Below, in pieces: positions 15 to 22,741 of a stretch of DNA of 64,000 nucleotides (positions are counted from its first letter, which is position 1; every line of letters begins with the position of its first letter). Source of the stretch: Escherichia phage vB_Eco_ZCEC15; the sequence record PQ871103.1. The stretch is one strand, 5' to 3'. Under the pieces are notes generated by a model, which was not told the DNA's origin, did not search any database, and was given only the letters and a program-made list of their open reading frames with translations. The position numbers and the translations under genes are program-made.

Positions 15-905
15 TTAAGATTTAAGTAAATCGACAATTTTAATTAACTTTTCACGCTCAGATTTAGCTTTACTACTCAGTCCAGATAGTCTGAAAATTT
101 CATCATCATATTGTTGAATAGAAATATTCAGCTCTTCAATCTGTTTATTAAAATAATCAATTTGTTCAGAATGTTTTTCGTTACTACGAACTGATACAGG
201 TTTCGTAGGCAATGTAGTTGAACTGGATTCATCCGGGCGATAAATTAAAATACAACTTGAACCAATAGGGCATTTTGCACCAGATGAATATTCTAATGTT
301 CCAGCTTCTTTTAAAACTTCAAAAGCTAAACAGAGATGATGCCCCATATTGACATAATCTGTAGAGCGAGCTCTGATATAATAATCATCTCCACGAATAC
401 TAAATTTAAAGCATTTAAGGTCTTCTGTATTATTGGTCTTAAAAATCATTTGTTTATCTAGACCTTTAGCTAATCGAGCGCCTAATGCTAATAATCGTCT
501 TTGATTTTCCCACAAATCCGCAATCATTTGATCGAATGATAATTTTGGCATTAGTCGACCATAAAGGTCATATCCTTTATTATAATTACGAAGGATTTCA
601 CTCGCGTTAATACGAGACAATGCTCCAATTTTATTAAGGGCTTTCATAATGCGATTAGATAAACTCATTCCAGATCCGTTTGTTCGCTGCAAATGTTTTT
701 CTAATCCAAATCCAATATCAACTTTAAACTTATCTAAAATTTCTGCATGAACATCTCTGTCAATAACATTCAAATCCAAAGTTGGGTTAAATCTATGAAA
801 AAATTTATCCGGCTCTCCACGGCGAAATACAGTCCATTCATTCATCATTTTTTTATTAACTAAAGATTTAATTACTGCATTGACATTATTAATTACTACT
901 GACAT
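15..905 (-). CDS. hypothetical protein (~296 aa)
   Basis: Long ORF; start adjusted to ATG 903-905 preceded by GAGGAAAA RBS (track start 926 is TTG); no motif recognised. Confidence 0.55.
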   Translation of the reverse strand: MSVVINNVNAVIKSLVNKKMMNEWTVFRRGEPDKFFHRFNPTLDLNVIDRDVHAEILDKFKVDIGFGLEKHLQRTNGSGMSLSNRIMKALNKIGALSRINASEILRNYNKGYDLYGRLMPKLSFDQMIADLWENQRRLLALGARLAKGLDKQMIFKTNNTEDLKCFKFSIRGDDYYIRARSTDYVNMGHHLCLAFEVLKEAGTLEYSSGAKCPIGSSCILIYRPDESSSTTLPTKPVSVRSNEKHSEQIDYFNKQIEELNISIQQYDDEIFRLSGLSSKAKSEREKLIKIVDLLKS

Positions 906-5865: not shown

Positions 5866-6408
5866 TCACTTTGAAATCATAGTTGGAATGACAGAATCAA
5901 GATAAGTCTTTAGCGCAATAGCTTCGTCTTTGGTAAATGTGACAATATGTGCTCGAGAATCATCAATTTGGCGAACAAGTACGACATCACCATCTTCATA
6001 AGAAGTTTTGACATCCAAAGTCGTAGTATAGTTTGCAGCTACTGGATTAATAATGCTAGCACTGCGATCTTTAGCCCATTGAAGTTTAGCCTTTTCGGAT
6101 GTTTCGGCTGATTCAGATTCCAAGAATTCTTTCACCTTAACAACGAATGTTGCCCAATTATCGATAGAAAGACACGCAAGTTCAGTTTCAATATTACCAC
6201 CGTGAGTGCCACGATAAAAACGAACTTGGAGGTCGCCTGTGATATTAGTTACACTGGTAACTCCTGAGGGAGTATAAGATAAAATCGCAGCTAGTTCCAT
6301 AGGAAGAATAGTAATACTATCGTCTTCCTGTGTCAGAACGTATGCATTACCACGTTTTTCGATAACTAGATCACCGAACAAATCAGTTGTTTCAATTACA
6401 GCTTTCAT
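5866..6408 (-). CDS. hypothetical protein (~180 aa), paralog of previous gene
   Basis: ORF; start adjusted to ATG 6406-6408 (track start is TTG); paralogous to 5338-5859. Confidence 0.6.
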   Translation of the reverse strand: MKAVIETTDLFGDLVIEKRGNAYVLTQEDDSITILPMELAAILSYTPSGVTSVTNITGDLQVRFYRGTHGGNIETELACLSIDNWATFVVKVKEFLESESAETSEKAKLQWAKDRSASIINPVAANYTTTLDVKTSYEDGDVVLVRQIDDSRAHIVTFTKDEAIALKTYLDSVIPTMISK

Positions 6409-6409
6409 A

Positions 6410-6604
6410 TTATTTACCAATTAAAGTTTCAATATAAGAATCAAGATGTACTTTAGCTTCTTCCATAAGAGTTTTGTATTTAATCTTAATCTTATTAGCA
6501 TGTCTGGAGAAAGCTGATTCTTCATCAATAACTGTTGATGCATGAACAGCTTTACTATAAATCTCAATTAATTCTCTTAACTCAAAAGCTTGTTCATTTG
6601 TCAT
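6410..6604 (-). CDS. hypothetical small protein (64 aa)
   Basis: ORF with AAAGGAG RBS upstream of ATG. Confidence 0.45.
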   Translation of the reverse strand: MTNEQAFELRELIEIYSKAVHASTVIDEESAFSRHANKIKIKYKTLMEEAKVHLDSYIETLIGK

Positions 6605-13920: not shown

Positions 13921-14337
13921 TTAAATGTAAATATTTTTGCCGTAATACTTATACCAGTGTGGCTTCATTAAAATTTTTTCATCGAGTCGTTGTTGACTCA
14001 ACTTAATAGCTGATTTGCATGGATTATAATCATTTTTCCATTCTACTGGAATATCGCTGATGTCAGGAACTTCAGTATCTTTTATACTGAACCCGCGTTT
14101 TAAGCATTCCGTTATAATGTCCGATTGACGCTTTCGCAAAAATTCTAACTTATCATAAAAGAACGTAACATGACCAGAACCTAAAATAAACTCGGAAGAT
14201 ATTTTAAAATCTTTAACCCGCTTACCATTTGCTACATGTTTACGAACTATACCAAAAACACGCGGCAATTCACGGTATTCTGCGATTAAATGTTGATCAG
14301 CAAGTTCAGATACTAAAGTCAAATTAATACGAGTCAT
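13921..14337 (-). CDS. denV: endonuclease V (pyrimidine dimer DNA glycosylase)
   Basis: 138 aa; [17 protein letters not shown]...[11 protein letters not shown] matches T4 DenV; early promoter and GGAGG RBS upstream. Confidence 0.95.
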
Positions 14338-14362
14338 TTTATCCCTCCAAGCAATTGTGAAT

Positions 14363-14392
14363 ATACTATCACAATTCTAGGAGAAAGTAAAC
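14363..14392 (-). promoter_or_regulatory. T4-type early promoter (denV)
   Basis: AAAGTTGTTTAC-N18-TAGTAT upstream of denV RBS GGAGG. Confidence 0.6.
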
Positions 14393-14396
14393 AACT

Positions 14397-14927
<531 letters not shown>

Positions 14928-15368
14928 TTAAAAGAGGCTGTTCATTATTCGGTAAAGTGAAGGGCCCATCACATATTGCCACTGAGTACGAGGAATAAGA
15001 GCAAAAGCATCCATCTCTGGAATCATAACGCCATCTTTATTTTCAAAATAAGACTCGCAATGGCAATTTCTAAACATCTCATGCTCTACTGGAATCGTAT
15101 AATAAAATAACTGTAAGTCTTTATTACTAGAATATTTAAATACACCTAAGTCTTCTAGAAGGTCTGGATTATAATTGCTAAAGCCAGTCTCTTCTAAGCA
15201 TTCTCTTCGTGCTGCATCTAGTGCGCTTAAATCAGAACTTTCTACACGCCCCTTTGGAATATCCCAGCGATGTGCCATCATTCCATGTTTACGAGAACCA
15301 GTAACTCGTCCCATAAATAAATCTTTATCTTCTGTCATAAAGATAATACCAGCTGATAGTGTTTTCAT
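14928..15368 (-). CDS. nudE: Nudix hydrolase
   Basis: Nudix box GRVESSDLSALDAARRECLEETGF; start adjusted to ATG 15366-15368 after AGGAAA (track start 15383 lacks RBS). Confidence 0.85.
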   Translation of the reverse strand: MKTLSAGIIFMTEDKDLFMGRVTGSRKHGMMAHRWDIPKGRVESSDLSALDAARRECLEETGFSNYNPDLLEDLGVFKYSSNKDLQLFYYTIPVEHEMFRNCHCESYFENKDGVMIPEMDAFALIPRTQWQYVMGPSLYRIMNSLF

Positions 15369-15853
15369 TTTAATTTCCTGCATTCAGTGATAAAATTATT
15401 TAAATTTTGAGCATATTTCTTTTCATCAAAAATCTTTTGTTGTCTGCGCATCCGCCATGGCATTTCAATGAACATGTACCATATTCCTGATAATATTGAT
15501 GCTGTAAAAATATTAACAAGTATGGTTAAAAGAATCCAATCTCCTATTCTGTCCATTGGATTTTTTATAAAAAAGTAAAATACGAATGATGACACAGGAA
15601 GACTAATGATATACCACAGAATCATAATCTTATCTGTGAACCATTCAGCATTCGTTAACTTAGCACGACCATTATGAATACACACGAATTTATCATCTGT
15701 TACAGTAGATGGCTTAACTGCTTGATATCCCATTCTAAACTCCCTAATTAATCGTTTCTTTGTATCTTCAGAACAGCCGCTCCAGTCAACTCTATCAACT
15801 GAAATGCCATCGTCCCCATCATCTAAATCATACCAGTGAGTTTTTAAAATCAT
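15365..15853 (-). CDS. membrane protein (162 aa), e.2-position family member
   Basis: Two hydrophobic helices; C-terminal FITECRKLK motif shared with neighbours; ATGA coupling. Confidence 0.55.
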   Translation of the reverse strand: MILKTHWYDLDDGDDGISVDRVDWSGCSEDTKKRLIREFRMGYQAVKPSTVTDDKFVCIHNGRAKLTNAEWFTDKIMILWYIISLPVSSFVFYFFIKNPMDRIGDWILLTILVNIFTASILSGIWYMFIEMPWRMRRQQKIFDEKKYAQNLNNFITECRKLK

Positions 15854-16224
15854 TTAATTTTCCTACAATCACTCACAAACTCTTCCATTGATTCTTTTTC
15901 AATATAAGACATATAGCTATTATATTCCTTTAATTGTATTTTGTAATCCTTTTTTCTTTGCCAATTTATTTTAAAATTATCATAATGAAAATATAACACG
16001 GTACCAAAGAATGAAAATAATGAAATTGCTATAGTATAATGAAGTTCACTCCAAACTTCTATTATATCTACTATACCGCTGACGTTACTGCGGATGTTTA
16101 AAATAAAACAGTCAATTAACAATCCAATAAAACTACCCGCAAGAGCTGCAGCCAATGCCACAGCAAAAATTGAAAATGACTCAGAAAAAGAATATTTGAC
16201 TTTATTTAGTTTTGGCTTTTGCAT
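15850..16224 (-). CDS. membrane protein (124 aa), family member
   Basis: Two hydrophobic helices; C-terminal FVSDCRKIK. Confidence 0.55.
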   Translation of the reverse strand: MQKPKLNKVKYSFSESFSIFAVALAAALAGSFIGLLIDCFILNIRSNVSGIVDIIEVWSELHYTIAISLFSFFGTVLYFHYDNFKINWQRKKDYKIQLKEYNSYMSYIEKESMEEFVSDCRKIK

Positions 16225-16619
16225 CGTGATTCCTTAACAAATTTCATAATTTCATCAAATTCATACATATCTAGCTTAAGCTGGTGTTCCTTTTTAATCT
16301 TTTTACACTGAGCTTTCCAATCACGTACGCGTTTACGATAATGCCTTCCTTGATACCAGTATCCTACCCAATTTACGGGTACTAATAAAAGTGGAACTAT
16401 TAATGGAAGAATTAGCATTAACACAAGTATTTCGCCAGAATCAATATCAGTCATAACATCTAAAACACCTCCAATAATCAATAGAATTACAAATGATATG
16501 AGTATAACAGGACCTATTAACACATCAGTAGAAATTATCTGACGCTTTGGTTCATACTTCAACGGTTTACTTGGAAGGTATAGTGATGGCTTTGACATAT
16601 TCTCTACATTCCTTAACAA
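16206..16619 (-). CDS. membrane protein (137 aa), family member
   Basis: Two hydrophobic helices; C-terminal FVKESRCK. Confidence 0.55.
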   Translation of the reverse strand: MLRNVENMSKPSLYLPSKPLKYEPKRQIISTDVLIGPVILISFVILLIIGGVLDVMTDIDSGEILVLMLILPLIVPLLLVPVNWVGYWYQGRHYRKRVRDWKAQCKKIKKEHQLKLDMYEFDEIMKFVKESRCKSQN

Positions 16620-17181
16620 ATTTTTCTAATAATAAATCGCTTTCAAAATTGGGATTTTCTACGAATTTATCAAAAAGATCATCAACAATAGTTAAGATAT
16701 TCTTTTTACTAAGAATACGCTTATTTTCATATTTTGTTTCAGAGTCAACTATAAGAGTAAAGAAATATTTCTTTCCCTGAAATTTTACCGTAGTATCAAT
16801 ATAAAATAAATTTGATTTTTGTAAATTACGTTTAAACCATGCATCACTTAAACTATAAACGCCAAGATAATCATAATCGTCGTTTAAATAACAAACCGTC
16901 CATTCAGGAGAAATGAAATCAGTAAATTCAACATCAAAATCACACGTCAATGAATGAATTGATTCAATACTGTTAATAAGTATTCCAGGACGTATTAAAG
17001 ACTTTTTACCTCTAGAAAATCTTCCGGAAAGACTTTCATCAGTTTCATATGAAGACCCCCAATAGTAATTACGTCCTTCTGCCATACGTTTAAGAGCATT
17101 TAGTAATTGGTCTGGAACATCAACCTGTCTTTGGAACTCTTCAAACATTGAATTGAAATCACTTTGCATTTTCATTTTCAT
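16567..17181 (-). CDS. hypothetical soluble protein (204 aa)
   Basis: ORF; C-terminal FVKECREYV resembles the motif of the three downstream membrane proteins. Confidence 0.55.
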   Translation of the reverse strand: MKMKMQSDFNSMFEEFQRQVDVPDQLLNALKRMAEGRNYYWGSSYETDESLSGRFSRGKKSLIRPGILINSIESIHSLTCDFDVEFTDFISPEWTVCYLNDDYDYLGVYSLSDAWFKRNLQKSNLFYIDTTVKFQGKKYFFTLIVDSETKYENKRILSKKNILTIVDDLFDKFVENPNFESDLLLEKFVKECREYVKAITIPSK

Positions 17182-17198
17182 TCCTATTTACTCCAAGT

Positions 17199-17220
17199 AT
17201 AAGGGGCCGAAGCCCCTTAT
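17199..17220 (-). terminator. GC hairpin (terminator or RNA-stabilising element)
   Basis: AAGGGGC-TTCG-GCCCCTT; the same 19-mer recurs at 58707-58725. Confidence 0.45.
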
Positions 17221-17222
17221 CA

Positions 17223-17815
17223 TTATTTCAGAGAATTAATGTATTCCTGAACATCGGCAGAGGTAGTTTCAACCCCAGAAATATTACCATTAAAGGTTTC
17301 AACTCGAGCAAGGGTATCTTCAATATCAACCTTAGTCAGTGCTGCAATTTCAACTACATCATCTGCAGCACTAATTCCAAGGGCATTTGCCGCACGAGTT
17401 TCACGGATATATTCCAATTTAACTGCAAGCTCTTGACGAGCATCATCTAACTCAACTACTTTCTTGGCGATTTCAATTCGCATTTCAGCATAACCGTCAG
17501 CCTTAGTAGTCAACTGCTCAGCTGTTCGACGATATAGTAAACCAAGTTTAGCATGCATTGTTACATCTTGACCTTCGGAAAGAAGTTTACGAATTTCACG
17601 CTCTTTTGATTCAGCCTGTCGATTCTTTTCGACAATAAGTTCACGAATACGTTTTTCTTCATTAATAGATTTAACAGAAGCAGTTTTAGATCTTTAATTT
17701 TATCAAGTAGTTTTGCTGCCGCAGCAGTATACTGTTCTTCAACAGATAAATTTTTAGCCATAGCAGAACCAAGTTTAGTGCGAATAAACTCAACAATTTT
17801 CTTCAGTGTGTTCAT
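17223..17815 (-). pseudogene. coiled-coil protein gene interrupted by apparent 1-nt frameshift
   Basis: Two ORFs (17561-17815 and 17223-17558) overlap in different frames; downstream frame reads as good protein up to a stop at 17694-17696, upstream frame becomes low-complexity LLLLNLL; shift site near AAAA run ~17684-17692. Confidence 0.5.
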
Positions 17816-17842
17816 AGTATTTCCTTAGGTTGATACAATTAG

Positions 17843-17872
17843 ATAATATCACGTTTTTAATAGATTGTAAAC
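17843..17872 (-). promoter_or_regulatory. T4-type early promoter
   Basis: GTTTAC-N18-TATTAT upstream of the frameshifted gene start 17815. Confidence 0.55.
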
Positions 17873-18208
17873 TTATTCTTCGTCTATCTCATCGATAAAG
17901 ACGTCAATGGCCTCGATAACGGCATCATTGATAGCCAATAAAGTAAAATCATCGTCAGTGCCTTTAGAAGATTCTAAAGCATTGATATATGCTTGGTTAG
18001 CAAGTTCCCAAGCCTTTTTAAAATAAGGAGCTTCATCATCAGGGCCAACGAAACGTACACCTTCAAAGATACGGTTAGCATAATCCAATACCCACTGTAC
18101 AGGCATGTTTTGAGAGCGTTCGTTAAACTCTTTAAATTCCTTAGATTCAAAAAGCTCTTCGGGATAATAATTTCGATTACAAAAAGCTTTACTAAAGTTA
18201 CGTTTCAT
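17873..18208 (-). CDS. hypothetical acidic protein (111 aa)
   Basis: ORF with acidic C-terminus; early promoter -35 overlaps its stop. Confidence 0.5.
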   Translation of the reverse strand: MKRNFSKAFCNRNYYPEELFESKEFKEFNERSQNMPVQWVLDYANRIFEGVRFVGPDDEAPYFKKAWELANQAYINALESSKGTDDDFTLLAINDAVIEAIDVFIDEIDEE

Positions 18209-18263
18209 AATGTTCTCCTCAAGTTACAGGCTCATAATATCTCAATCATGAGCCTGTGTAAAC

Positions 18264-18527
18264 TTATTTCATATTATTGAAATATTCTTCTGCGATTTCG
18301 TCGTTATCATGGTAAACTTTAGAAGACAGTTTAACATAACCTTCTGCTGTGAACATATTAATCACAACTTTTACAGTATACCACTGACCGTCTTCATTAC
18401 CCATTACTGCGTAAGTTTCAAACATCGGATGATCAGGACCGATAACTTTAATATCATTCACTGTACGACCGAAATCTTCTGAAACGCATTTCATAAAGAA
18501 GTTGAACAGTTCGCCGTAATTATCCAT
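18264..18527 (-). CDS. hypothetical protein (~87 aa)
   Basis: Start adjusted to ATG 18525-18527 after GGAG; the track's extra N-terminal codons are the promoter -10 read in frame. Confidence 0.5.
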   Translation of the reverse strand: MDNYGELFNFFMKCVSEDFGRTVNDIKVIGPDHPMFETYAVMGNEDGQWYTVKVVINMFTAEGYVKLSSKVYHDNDEIAEEYFNNMK

Positions 18528-18571
18528 TTCATTCTCCAAGTTGTTTTTCTGTATCAGTAGTTGATAGTTGT

Positions 18572-18601
18572 ATAGTACCATGGAAGAACAGGGATGTAAA
18601 C
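18572..18601 (-). promoter_or_regulatory. T4-type early promoter
   Basis: GTTTAC-N18-TACTAT; exact 22-mer repeat copy. Confidence 0.6.
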
Positions 18602-18735
18602 AGTTTTGTGAAAAAAATTTTTAAAAAGTTTTAGGGAATTCTAGGGTCAGGAGGGACAATTAAAAGGTAGGATAATATATTATAAAGGGTATAAACTAAA
18701 TGATGCCTAGAGAGACAAGGAAAGGCCTAGATACC

Positions 18736-18763
18736 AAAAAGCCCCAACCTTTTGGTCGGGGCT
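18736..18763 (-). terminator. rho-independent terminator after internal-protein-like gene
   Basis: Hairpin AGCCCCGACC-AAAA-GGTTGGGGCT plus U-run; near-identical copy at 19271-19298. Confidence 0.7.
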
Positions 18764-18770
18764 AAGAATG

Positions 18771-19232
18771 TTATTTGATTTGTTTAGCAGACCAAATGCG
18801 GTCTTTGATGATTTTTTGGAGGTCTTCAACATACTCTAGGTCATGAGCATGTGGATTATCTTTGAAACTATGAGCTCGCGCAAGTTTCTGGCCTTCGGTC
18901 TTAATTATCAAAAGTTCTTTAAGAATTGCTTCATACCTAGAGATAATTCCTTTAGCAATATTTTTTTCTTGTGCTGCTTTAGGGTCAGCCTTAGGAGCAG
19001 GTTTACCAGAAGGTTTTTCGAAAGCCGCGCCAGTAGCAACCAGGCTTTTCCAGGCGGTGGTAACATAGTTACCCACAAAGCCTTCAGCTCTCATATCGTC
19101 GTAGAACTTGTACCGAGATTCGTCAGAAGCATCTTTATAAGAATATTTACCAGCTTTAATAGCAGCAGTTGCTACAGCGCGAACATCTGAAGCGGATGCT
19201 TCGGTCATTAAAAATTGAGCATAAGTTTTCAT
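18771..19232 (-). CDS. internal-protein-like capsid-targeted protein (153 aa)
   Basis: N-terminus MKTYAQFLMTE resembles the T4 capsid targeting sequence MKTYQEFIAE; late promoter TATAAATA and AGGAAA RBS upstream; own terminator. Confidence 0.65.
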   Translation of the reverse strand: MKTYAQFLMTEASASDVRAVATAAIKAGKYSYKDASDESRYKFYDDMRAEGFVGNYVTTAWKSLVATGAAFEKPSGKPAPKADPKAAQEKNIAKGIISRYEAILKELLIIKTEGQKLARAHSFKDNPHAHDLEYVEDLQKIIKDRIWSAKQIK

Positions 19233-19260
19233 TGTTATTTCCTGTGTTAATTAACTCATC

Positions 19261-19268
19261 TATTTATA
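19261..19268 (-). promoter_or_regulatory. late promoter (TATAAATA)
   Basis: Exact TATAAATA on minus strand 30 nt upstream of internal-protein-like gene. Confidence 0.55.
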
Positions 19269-19270
19269 CT

Positions 19271-19298
19271 AAAAAGCCCCAACCTTTCGGTCGGGGCT
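19271..19298 (-). terminator. rho-independent terminator after tRNA/small-RNA cluster
   Basis: Hairpin AGCCCCGACC-GAAA-GGTTGGGGCT plus UUUUU. Confidence 0.7.
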
Positions 19299-19612
19299 AA
19301 GCCTTGCGGCAACCTTGTCGGGGTTCCACCTGCTAAGGCAAGTGTTTGTACGAAACGCCGGGATTCGAACCCGGTTATTAAGTAGTTGACGCTACTCAAT
19401 ATTTTTAAAAGGCCATATCTCGACCATATCCGAACGTTCCGTCAAAAACGCTACTCGGCTTACGGCAAAGATATTTCCTCGAATCGATAATTCGGTGCGC
19501 CGTTTCTGCTGTGATGTAAGAGGGCATCAATAAACGTGAAGATTATTAACGCAATTCCTTACTCAGGGAACATCAGTCCGACGACTTACCGGTAGCGACC
19601 CGGTTTCTTGTT
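19299..19612 (-). ncRNA. small stable RNA region (T4 species 1/2 RNA position, rnaC/rnaD-like)
   Basis: ~310 nt non-coding between tRNA-Arg and a terminator; contains tRNA-like T-arm CCGGGTTCGAATCCCGG (plus 19358-19375); individual boundaries not resolved. Confidence 0.4.
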
Positions 19613-19689
<77 letters not shown>

Positions 19690-19692
19690 TAA

Positions 19693-20358
19693 TTAAAATT
19701 TCATTTTTCTACCTTTAAACCATCCTTCTGGAATTGGGTCAGTTTTCTTAATACGTTTAGAAACTTTTTCATCTAATGAATGAATCCACATCATACCAAA
19801 TTGGGAATTCTTTTCACCTTGTTGGTGTTTATTTTTGGCGTGAGATTCTTTCATTTTATTAATAGTTTCAGGAGTATGATGCTTATTTAAAAATCTGCTA
19901 TTATTTAAAAATTTTTCCCTGTATTCAGGAGTTGACCACAAACGTTTAAATACATTTGAACCATGTTTACGATATTTTTCTTGAAGTAAAATATCATTTT
20001 TAAAACGTGACTTAAACGATTTAGCTCCTTTTAAACTAGCGTCTTTCTTCTGATTTAGCATCTCAGGAATATTTATATGGTCCCATCCACCTTCACCACC
20101 AAGTTTTAAATTATACACATCTGGTCTATTTAAAAACTCTTCTGTGACAATATTTTTCTCGGCTTCAAGCATAGATTCTTTATCATCAAAATACTCTAAT
20201 ATTTCTTTAGAGAAATTTTCTATACCATACTTGTCTTGGGCTCTTTTTAATAATTTACCAGAACCCATATATCCATCATCTAAATTTTCGGTAGAATGCA
20301 CACCAATATAAATTTTATTATTAATTTTATTTGTTATTTTATAAGTGTAATGGAACAT
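19693..20358 (-). CDS. segB: GIY-YIG homing endonuclease
   Basis: 221 aa; N-terminal YTYKITNKINNKIYIGVHS...GYMGSG GIY-YIG motif; located inside the tRNA cluster as T4 segB. Confidence 0.85.
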   Translation of the reverse strand: MFHYTYKITNKINNKIYIGVHSTENLDDGYMGSGKLLKRAQDKYGIENFSKEILEYFDDKESMLEAEKNIVTEEFLNRPDVYNLKLGGEGGWDHINIPEMLNQKKDASLKGAKSFKSRFKNDILLQEKYRKHGSNVFKRLWSTPEYREKFLNNSRFLNKHHTPETINKMKESHAKNKHQQGEKNSQFGMMWIHSLDEKVSKRIKKTDPIPEGWFKGRKMKF

Positions 20359-22507: not shown

Positions 22508-22741
22508 TTATTTTTTACGAAAAATTGATTTATTTTCTGCTGCCCATTTTTCAATAACTGCAGCAGGACCAGTAACAACAATTTTATCACCGTAATCTTC
22601 TGCGGCGAGTTGACCGAAATTATCTAATGCATCACGAAGAACTCCATGAGGCATTTCACCCATTTTATCTTTCTTGCCAGTGTAAATAAACTCAACTTTT
22701 ACATCAGCAGTTTCAGCAATAAATTCTTGGTAAGTTTTCAT
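22508..22741 (-). CDS. internal protein (capsid-targeted), ~77 aa
   Basis: Starts MKTYQEFIAE, the T4 capsid targeting sequence as recalled; start adjusted to second ATG; own early promoter. Confidence 0.7.
   Translation of the reverse strand: MKTYQEFIAETADVKVEFIYTGKKDKMGEMPHGVLRDALDNFGQLAAEDYGDKIVVTGPAAVIEKWAAENKSIFRKK

Follow-up and report, generated by a model that had tools for sequence, protein, structure and literature searches.

A short C-terminal peptide, Phi-x-x-F-[IV]-x-[ED]-[C/S/I/V]-[RK], and not a whole-protein family, appears to unite four neighbouring early genes of Escherichia phage vB_Eco_ZCEC15 (sequence record PQ871103.1). The genes lie on the minus strand at positions 15365-17181 of the 64,000-nucleotide stretch that was analysed (hereafter the window). 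Judged by sequence, the window belongs to a T4-like phage of the genus Tequatrovirus, and the four genes correspond to T4 e.5, e.4, e.3 and e.2 as orthologues. We propose, with a probability of roughly 0.4, that the peptide is a portable cytoplasmic docking helix common to early accessory proteins, the docking function itself being the step that we infer. The genes are known T4 open reading frames (ORFs) without known function; the new part is the common terminal peptide and not the genes.

The initial annotation, which was made from the letters of the window, had noticed that the four proteins end in related peptides with the motif F-[VI]-x-[ED]-[CS]-R. The peptides occur exactly as it quoted them, namely NFITECRKLK in e.2, EFVSDCRKIK in e.3, KFVKESRCK in e.4 and EKFVKECREYV in e.5, and the motif is real, with four copies in the window, all of them in these genes. 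For the scan, the whole window was translated in six frames and stop-to-stop spans of at least 60 codons were taken. The pattern F[VIL].[ED][CS]R was matched exactly four times, always in e.2-e.5 and 3-11 residues before the stop codon; the number expected from amino-acid composition in about 20,000 amino acids (aa) of predicted window protein is 0.05. Moreover, among the 54 junctions of the window with a gap of no more than 12 nucleotides (nt), the motif is found only at these four and is missing from the 50 others. Across the members found in related phages it lies 0-11 residues from the C-terminus. The tail of e.2 ends with LNNFITECRKLK, and that of e.4, which is basic and predicted to be cytoplasmic, with KFVKESRCKSQN. 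In e.5, another 11 residues come after KFVKECREY, and these overlap the e.4 start.

It had also been suspected that part of this conservation is an artefact at the nucleotide level, in which case the similarity would reflect the Shine-Dalgarno (SD) sequence, the start codon and the dual coding of the overlapping downstream gene. Indeed, each motif holds a GGA-type SD sequence for the next gene. The e.2 and e.3 genes have TGYAGGAAAWTWAAATGA in common, which comprises an SD sequence plus the ATGA stop/start, and e.4 and e.5 have AAATTTGTTAAGGAAT in common, with AAGGA as the SD sequence. The start codon of e.3 takes its A from the e.4 Arg codon CGA and its TG from the TGC that follows; the 'RC' of e.4, with its Cys after the Arg, is therefore forced because these codons carry the start of e.3. 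Likewise, the residues behind the e.5 motif overlap the conserved e.4 N-terminus.

However, five Arg codons are in use among the members. Tequatrovirus e.2 and e.3 have AGG, and e.2 of Dhakavirus and Gaprivervirus has CGT; AGA is the codon of e.5 and of e.3 and e.4 in Mosigvirus, CGA that of an ORF133c-like protein and of Tequatrovirus e.4, and one Dhakavirus protein has CGC. Cys is encoded by TGT or TGC even among close relatives, and Phe by TTT or TTC. The SD sequence shifts among the motif codons as well. In e.2 and e.3 of Tequatrovirus it is found in the 'R-K' codons (AGGAAA); the 'E-E' or 'K-E' codons (GAGGAA or AAGGAA) hold it in Dhakavirus/Gaprivervirus e.2, Mosigvirus e.3, e.4 and e.5. 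Where Arg is CGT, it has moved to the Glu-Glu codons (GAGGAA) and the peptide F-I-E-E-C-R-K is the same. In a 178-aa Dhakavirus protein, ECREY (GAA TGC CGC GAA TAC) even lies 22 nt upstream of the next ATG, with a GAGG SD sequence downstream of the motif, and its codons differ from those of e.5 by three synonymous changes. Among the members, the motif and the next ATG are -1 to 22 nt apart, no SD sequence accounts for F, I/V and C, and the tight junctions that lack the motif likewise speak against such an artefact.

Conservation within the families points in the same direction. When e.2 was aligned across four genera, F, I, E, C and R turned out to be invariant in proteins that are only 30-45% identical overall (5 of the 6 motif columns vs 14% of all columns, p = 2e-4), and in e.4 invariant columns made up 4/6 of the motif vs 12% of the alignment (p = 0.002). 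Among cluster representatives at 90% identity, F, [ED], C and R are unchanged in 91 of 95 e.2 and 37 of 45 e.3 proteins, and the representatives without the motif are truncated or frameshifted forms. Because the codons vary and the SD sequence moves while the amino acids stay, the constraint is placed on the peptide, and selection acts on the amino acids and not on the nucleotides of the ribosome-binding site. The artefact is thus largely refuted by the codon data and hardly credible as an explanation. Of the suspicion that the similarity is confined to the overlapping nucleotides, one half stands, namely the restriction to the tail, and the other half, the nucleotide-level origin, does not.

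A further feature of the motif codons is that Glu-Cys (GA-ATG-Y) creates an out-of-frame ATG, which Tequatrovirus e.3 (GAT TGT) lacks. From this ATG a mini-ORF of one or two codons (ATG TAG or ATG TCG TAA) precedes the real start in e.5, Mosigvirus e.3 and Dhakavirus/Gaprivervirus e.2.

The tail was found in four genera of T-even phages. In Mosigvirus, e.2 ends with ..ERFITECRNLR and e.3 with ..ENFIKECRK; e.3 of Dhakavirus and Gaprivervirus ends with ..ETFIKECKS, and Gaprivervirus e.4 with ..EFIKEIRNGTA. Moreover, the tail occurs on an RB69 ORF133c-like protein with two transmembrane (TM) segments (..LENFIKECRGK) and on the 178-aa soluble protein of Dhakavirus and Gaprivervirus (..LNRFIAECREYAKEVRNV). 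The latter occupies the same slot after e.6 as e.5, and BLASTP aligns the two proteins only over L-x-x-F-[VI]-x-E-C-R-E-Y-x-K. The e.2 and e.3 genes are present in all four genera, and the other carriers vary. A scan of IMG/VR for the coding pattern together with ATGA yielded genuine ORFs only from T-even contigs. Matches elsewhere were short out-of-frame spans, except for one 73-aa ORF ending with FIEECSK, which may be due to chance. An exhaustive hidden Markov model search of 1.84 billion representatives with the e.5 profile returned five proteins, all from T-even phages, and no remote homologues. A word-indexed homologue search with e.3 alone found only relatives of at least 66% identity and did not widen the family. 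As far as these searches of sequences reach, the motif is restricted to this genome region and to the four T-even genera.

Further resemblances were also seen. Residues 92-102 of e.4 (about 16293-16325, minus strand) read RDWKAQCKKIK and were aligned by BLASTP with the terminal FVSDCRKIK of e.3; its Cys is also kept in e.4 of Mosigvirus and of Gaprivervirus, and the stretch could represent another copy of the tail motif within the protein. The e.7 gene (17873-18208) ends with ..AIDVFIDEIDEE directly before the stop codon and fits the relaxed pattern Phi-x-x-F-I-x-E near its C-terminus, and Mosigvirus gene 131 (locus L007, 5665-5904) ends with ..NIACREI. Both ends may be weak echoes of the same tail.

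The claim that three of the four proteins have two TM helices is borne out by Kyte-Doolittle hydropathy (19-residue window), one e.3 segment being borderline. The e.2 protein has peaks at residues 78-96 and 106-125 (both about 2.0), e.3 at residues 19-37 (2.5) and, as the borderline case, 61-79 (1.5), and e.4 at residues 31-49 (2.9) and 57-75 (3.0). The second hydrophobic segment of e.3 is clearer in the Dhakavirus orthologue. For e.5, no hydropathy peak was detected (maximum 0.87). The net charges of N-terminus, loop and start of the tail are +3/-2/+3 in e.3 and +1/-3/+4 in e.4, a pattern that fits a hairpin with both termini inside and thereby places the basic tails and the motif in the cytoplasm, where we take them to lie. 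The e.2 protein starts with an N-terminal domain of about 75 aa (W-x-[ND]-[LI]-DDG-x-x-GI...VDW-x-x-C), which is followed by the two-TM hairpin. Its AlphaFold2 model contains helices 74-95 and 103-161, of which the latter would comprise TM2 and the tail as one helix (predicted local distance difference test 74-86). In the moderately confident model of e.5, the motif is part of a C-terminal helix (183-198). On such a helix, the Phi at position -3, F, I/V and C of the motif would be found on one face.

The initial annotation had described the genes as a tandem paralogous family, which is likely for e.3 and e.4 and is not supported for the four proteins together, as they fall into four separate PHROGs and gave no match as a group outside the tail. 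Six families (e.2, e.3, e.4, e.5, the Dhakavirus 178-aa protein and the ORF133c-like protein) were compared with hhalign. Between families only the last 10-19 columns at the extreme C-terminus were matched, with 60-87% probability; the longest tail match was that of e.3 and e.4 (39 tail columns, 80%). After removal of the motif, all pairs fell below 20% probability. A single 25-column internal match between e.5 and the Dhakavirus 178-aa protein (64%) dropped to 0.2% without the tail. In agreement with this, the BLASTP alignment of e.2 and e.3 covers only 14 tail residues, and the soluble e.5 has no similarity to the other three proteins outside the tail. By contrast with the other pairs, e.3 and e.4 are collinear over their full length (21% identity, E 0.019), both begin with M-x-K-P-x-L, and the DNAs of the e.5/e.4 and e.4/e.3 junctions are homologous on both sides of the start codon. 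Because of the collinear alignment and the homologous junction DNA, e.3 and e.4 are likely paralogous, and they are probably the only true duplicates. The arrangement looks like a tandem duplication with the boundary of the unit inside the motif-coding sequence.

These results bear on the main rival of a docking helix, according to which all carriers would be divergent paralogues that arose from one ancestral gene by tandem duplication. The tail would be the slowest-evolving piece and would serve, for instance, as a helix cap for stability or membrane insertion, with no common partner. The features of the e.3/e.4 pair and of the junctions are what such a history would leave. Moreover, e.2, e.3, e.4 and the ORF133c-like protein have a common architecture (TM-TM, basic stretch, helical tail, motif); e.5 has no TM segment. 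A Foldseek search with the e.2 model matched a 124-aa viral protein (23% identity over 117 columns, E 1e-3), and this match of models would be compatible with old common ancestry of the hairpin proteins and is no proof of it. However, the loss of every hhalign match above 20% upon removal of the motif is difficult to reconcile with a single ancestor. The same applies to e.5 and the Dhakavirus 178-aa protein, which are soluble and in BLASTP share nothing beyond the tail, either with each other or with the membrane proteins. Furthermore, a stability cap needs no invariant F, E, C and R across different folds. Common descent of all carriers is therefore regarded as doubtful, though it deserves to be taken seriously.

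The identity of the genes is well established. Megablast matched the stretch 15365-17181 to 504 phage records at 90-98% identity, nearly all from Tequatrovirus, and the T4 and Sso113 annotations give the names e.2-e.5 to the matching genes, which were called msp7-msp4 in an early T4 entry (msp4-msp7 for e.5-e.2). The PHROG matches extend from end to end (E 1e-60 to 3e-110; Table 1). In tblastn searches, e.2 was 77% identical to its T4 counterpart; e.5 reached at least 93.6% identity in Tequatrovirus records, T4 itself not being among the matches listed. Order, overlaps and protein identity (77-97%) are those of T4 e.2-e.5, and the T4 record labels e.2-e.4 as 'predicted membrane protein'. The genes do not differ in kind from those of T4. 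Differences from the T4 reference are the length of e.2 (162 aa here vs a truncated form of 102 aa) and of e.3 (124 aa vs 120 aa). The four consecutive genes are present in the ORF list as described by the initial annotation. Three of the lengths that it gave (162, 124 and 204 aa) are correct; the 137 aa given for e.4 result from a TTG start at 16619 (16206-16619), and the ATG at 16598 yields a 130-aa form that begins with MSKPSLY, the start used in the T4 annotation and in all orthologues. The gene order e.6, e.5-e.2, nudE and lysozyme e is the same in the T4, Sso113 and Killian records, which confirms that nudE and e come directly after the four genes; denV follows e, as it does in the T4 reference.

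Table 1. Coordinates of the e.5-e.2 genes, their motif codons and neighbouring elements in the window
Feature	Position	Strand	Basis or remark
e.5 orthologue, 204 aa, soluble	16567..17181	-	PHROG 2607 E 3e-110; T4 annotation
e.4 orthologue, 130 aa, predicted two-TM hairpin	16206..16598	-	PHROG 2604 E 1e-70; T4 annotation
e.3 orthologue, 124 aa, predicted two-TM hairpin, tail ends EEFVSDCRKIK	15850..16224	-	PHROG 2330 E 1e-60
e.2 orthologue, 162 aa	15365..15853	-	PHROG 2203 E 2e-77
e.5 motif codons TTT GTT AAG GAA TGT AGA	16603..16620	-	
e.4 motif codons TTT GTT AAG GAA TCA CGA	16224..16241	-	
e.3 motif codons TTT GTG AGT GAT TGT AGG	15862..15879	-	
e.2 motif codons TTT ATC ACT GAA TGC AGG	15377..15394	-	
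nudE, Nudix hydrolase, translationally coupled to e.2	14928..15368	-	ATG overlaps e.2 stop (ATGA)
GC-rich hairpin with UUCG loop between e.6 and e.5	17199..17220	-	stem_loop at the same place in T4 L13089
Candidate sigma-70-like early promoter upstream of e.6, TTTACA-17-TATTAT with TG	17843..17871	-	promoters at equivalent positions in L13089

The tight coupling through overlapping stops and starts was confirmed, with overlaps of 32 nt (e.5/e.4), 19 nt (e.4/e.3) and 4 nt (e.3/e.2 and e.2/nudE, both ATGA). An additional in-frame ATG of nudE at 15383, which is the annotated start of the 151-aa NudE of T4, lies inside the e.2 motif codons. Sigma-70-like sites precede e.8, e.7 and e.6 in the window, and between e.6 and e.5 there is only the UUCG hairpin. 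Since this hairpin lacks a T-run on the coding strand and no strong promoter follows it, the genes from e.5 to nudE are probably read through from the early promoter of e.6 and translationally coupled. An Rfam search over 14000-20000 detected a tRNA and no other RNA family. The label 'early' agrees with a time-resolved omics study of T4, in which the RNAs of e.2-e.5 are early and all four proteins were detected, e.4 and e.5 early, e.2 in the middle phase and e.3 late (PMC9697503).

Precomputed Pfam assignments of homologues are PF26876 for e.5, PF26896 for e.2 and PF26873 for e.4. The local Pfam copy did not contain these three models, and scans against it, NCBIfam and PADLOC gave nothing above threshold for e.2-e.5, the Dhakavirus 178-aa protein or the ORF133c-like protein. 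In PADLOC, no match to known defence proteins was obtained at E up to 1, which is a weak test of anti-defence because the models describe defence and not anti-defence. The scans speak neither for nor against superinfection exclusion or membrane remodelling, the roles that the initial annotation had considered. No function and no common tail of the e.2-e.5 families was described in the literature searched, where queries with gene names mostly returned unrelated matches. With the e.5 model, BFVD/Foldseek retrieved uncharacterised proteins of 186-217 aa (probability 1.0, TM-score about 0.42, 14-17% identity) from the more distant T4-like phages Klebsiella F48, KaAlpha and Erwinia Cronus.

In the docking proposal, the peptide would form the end of an alpha-helix, one side of which carries Phi, F, I/V and C. 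The helix would continue TM2 in the three proteins e.2, e.3 and e.4, with N- and C-termini in the cytoplasm, and the motif would project 30-55 residues into the cytoplasm; in e.5 it would be part of the last helix of a soluble cytoplasmic protein. There, the peptide could act as a docking or assembly motif, either for one common cytoplasmic partner or for mutual binding, at the inner membrane during early infection, and the tail-bearing proteins of related phages would be brought to the same partner. The array probably grew by tandem duplication and recombination of cassettes: duplication with boundaries inside the motif-coding sequence would have given rise to e.3/e.4, and recombination would have placed motif cassettes behind unrelated genes.

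Several observations weigh against this proposal. The structure models are of single chains. The fifth motif position of e.4 is Ser, Ile or Val and never Cys, which may make its membership in a functional group doubtful. Natural tail-less variants exist, for instance the 102-aa e.2 of the T4 reference and an e.3 of 97 aa. Gene content differs by genus, and VR7 has only e.4, e.3 and e.2, so that a fixed hetero-complex is not needed. A regular heptad coiled coil of the tails was considered and rejected, as hydrophobic occupancy of the a/d positions is not consistently above that of b/c/f; with no sustained heptad register, a simple coiled-coil bundle is not supported. In a genome-wide knock-down with dCas13d, the T4 genes e.2-e.5 are listed as of unknown function and as 'Not Fit', that is, with no fitness defect (PMC11879866). 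Any function of e.2-e.5 would accordingly be conditional. Finally, the next start is in all cases only about 0-22 nt away from the motif, a closeness that is not required of a pure protein motif, although C-terminal tails on overlapping genes would have the same effect. On the whole, e.2-e.5 count as accessory genes of the hyperplastic region that lies between the tRNA cluster and lysozyme e; they are early and non-essential, being dispensable in the laboratory.

Among the further alternatives, a resemblance to the capsid-targeting sequence (CTS) of T4 internal head proteins comes next. The CTS of internal proteins of T4, VR5 and VR7 is MKTYQEFI[AT]E, in which residues 4 and 7 mainly determine targeting and residues 8 and 10 processing (PMC9026906). 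The tail could be a C-terminal counterpart of MKTYQEFIAE that binds the prohead core and/or is cut by gp21 after Glu. The key residues Y4, F7, I8 and E10 line up with the conserved Phi, F, I/V and E/D of the tail. Both peptides are short, portable and terminal, and both sit on otherwise unrelated, fast-evolving proteins whose genes lie in the same hyperplastic region. Moreover, Alt is cut not only at ITE-6 but also C-terminally at LTE-619, and proheads assemble on the inner membrane (PMC5694885). However, the CTS comprises the first 10 residues of late-acting head proteins and is removed by gp21, whereas the tail is C-terminal, has an invariant C-R after the Glu that is without counterpart in the CTS and belongs to early proteins, most of which (three in the window) are membrane-anchored. 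In addition, e.3 has Asp where processing of the CTS needs Glu. The relaxed pattern occurs 16 times in the 20,275 aa of the window proteome, so that the resemblance alone is weak. The names e.2-e.5 are also missing from the available supplements of the T4 head study, which give coverage figures for IPII, IPIII and Alt only and no list of virion proteins (PMC5694885). It is accordingly unlikely that the tail is a portable address label that the prohead core or gp21 would read. If it were true, the soluble carriers (e.5 and the Dhakavirus 178-aa protein) would be delivered into heads and injected into the next host, and e.2, e.3, e.4 and the ORF133c-like protein would link the assembling core to the inner membrane or be clipped there. 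T-even phages would then have a second terminal 'zip code' that routes fast-evolving accessory proteins to one receptor. Two ORFs of the window, 18771-19232 and about 22508-22741 (both minus strand), begin like a CTS with MKTYAQFLMTE and MKTYQEFIAE and probably encode internal head proteins, to judge by these starts; this phage has no ipII or ipIII between denV and e, unlike T4.

Slightly less probable still is that the junctions are DNA homology patches of approximately 20-45 nt, analogous to PeSL elements, which would permit shuffling of cassettes with the coupling kept and the peptide as a passenger. The shuffling of PeSL elements is documented in hyperplastic regions of T4-type phages (PMC2839356). 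As in that system, short conserved sequences are found at gene boundaries in a hyperplastic region of variable gene content. The two Tequatrovirus junctions are homologous, and the plasticity of the region is evident from the genus-specific gene sets, from phiE142-type Mosigvirus, in which e.3 is deleted and a tail remnant is left, and from a natural e.4/e.2 chimera. However, exact identity within one genome does not exceed 16 nt, and synonymous differences between the members indicate that amino acids and not bases are kept. PeSL elements are made of intergenic promoter and terminator DNA; here the genes overlap and conservation is at the amino-acid level. Because of these overlaps (4-32 nt), the e.5-e.2 junctions have neither a promoter nor a stem-loop, and no pair of a sigma-70-like promoter and a hairpin as in PeSL was found there. 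Furthermore, the chimera is joined inside the TM region and not at the motif. This chimera, a 106-aa protein of Escherichia phage vB_EcoM-UFV05 (P0156; PF26873 + PF26896), joins the N-terminus and the start of TM1 of e.4 to the end of TM1, TM2 and the tail of e.2, which deletes e.3 and most of e.4 and e.2. Elsewhere in the window, the 153-aa gene at 18771-19232 has a terminator hairpin on either side (18740-18763 and 19275-19298, minus strand; AGCCCCGACC[GA]AAAGGTTGGGGCT and then Ts). The two hairpins are nearly identical and resemble the PeSL cassettes of T4-type hyperplastic regions.

It is very improbable that the last residues act as a nascent peptide that pauses the ribosome over the next initiation region and tunes reinitiation. 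Although the overlaps couple all genes and, in 9 of 10 junctions examined, the next ATG follows the end of the motif after 0-10 nt, the distance of the motif from its own stop codon varies between 0 and 11 codons, the next ATG can be up to 22 nt away (Dhakavirus protein), no known arrest peptide is similar and the downstream genes are wholly different between members.

A role as holin- or antiholin-like regulators of lysis has to be given equally little credence as the nucleotide-level artefact. Class II holins have a similar topology and size and charged C-terminal tails. Like e.2-e.5, the T4 inner-membrane accessory proteins Imm, Sp and RI as well as class II holins are small and non-essential, with charged tails and one or two TM segments; e.2-e.5 differ from them in having no sequence or profile similarity to any of them, and none of them is known to share a terminal peptide with neighbouring soluble proteins. 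Small two-TM proteins with both termini inside, encoded one to three positions upstream of the endolysin gene e, would suit such regulators. However, Pfam and NCBIfam (E limit 1 for both) and PHROGs (E limit 0.01) gave no match to a holin family, knock-down is without phenotype, the same tail on soluble proteins would be left unexplained, and the RNAs as well as the e.4 and e.5 proteins of T4 are early (PMC9697503). Moreover, the T4 holin is the product of gene t, which lies elsewhere in the genome.

Further variants illustrate how the locus changes. The e.2 gene of the T4 reference (L004, 4001-4309) ends after TM1, and e.3 forms of 76-97 aa occur (P0038-P0041, P0045), several of which are frameshifted after the basic stretch. 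In Shigella phage vB_SsoM_113 (L001, 4830-5804), e.5 and e.4 are fused to a 324-aa ORF by a 1-nt indel in the A-run GAAAAATTT, and the e.5 motif is lost; this fusion may be a natural variant or a sequencing error. A programmed frameshift was rejected for this fusion in view of the indel, and for e.5/e.4 in general: the e.4 frame is +1 relative to that of e.5 and closely preceded by a stop codon, and a canonical slippery site is missing. In three other genera (Mosigvirus, Dhakavirus and Gaprivervirus), a tandem set of 3-5 small soluble proteins is encoded between e.3 and e.2, all of which end with W-x-x-S-S-x-x-C at the extreme C-terminus, such as GAWVSSSALC (L007 4805-5602; L012 4489-5286; L025 5162-6407; L026 81-1343). 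This set has no counterpart in the window or at the T4 locus and is a second example of neighbours that form a family by virtue of a common C-terminal peptide. In the window, two adjacent ORFs on the minus strand (5866-6408, 180 aa, and 6410-6604, 64 aa) also have similar ends, KTYLDSVIPTMISK and KVHLDSYIETLIGK.

Upstream of e.5, e.6 consists of two minus-strand ORFs (17223-17558 and 17561-17815; 84 aa and 111 aa), and in T4, Mosigvirus and Dhakavirus it encodes a single 197-aa protein. The split is either a frameshift or nonsense variant or a sequencing error. A PspA-like nature of e.6, which would suggest membrane remodelling, one of the roles that had been considered for the array, was rejected, as Pfam gave no match to PspA and none that reached its cut-off. 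A profile search of the PDB sequences with e.6 returned nothing below E 0.36.

About half of the T4 genes are without a function, and most of these lie in hyperplastic regions. A peptide that is kept in at least six families dissimilar outside the tail, and in four genera, offers a direct experimental handle on such genes. With one bait peptide, or with one set of point mutants, a partner common to an entire block of 'dark' early genes could be found, and it could be seen whether T-even phages route accessory proteins by terminal address labels other than the CTS. For coupled phage genes in general, the case provides a clean worked example of how protein constraint can be separated from constraint by ribosome-binding sites and overlaps. 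If the partner were a host membrane or defence component, the e.2-e.5 block would join the conditional modules for host takeover and counter-defence.

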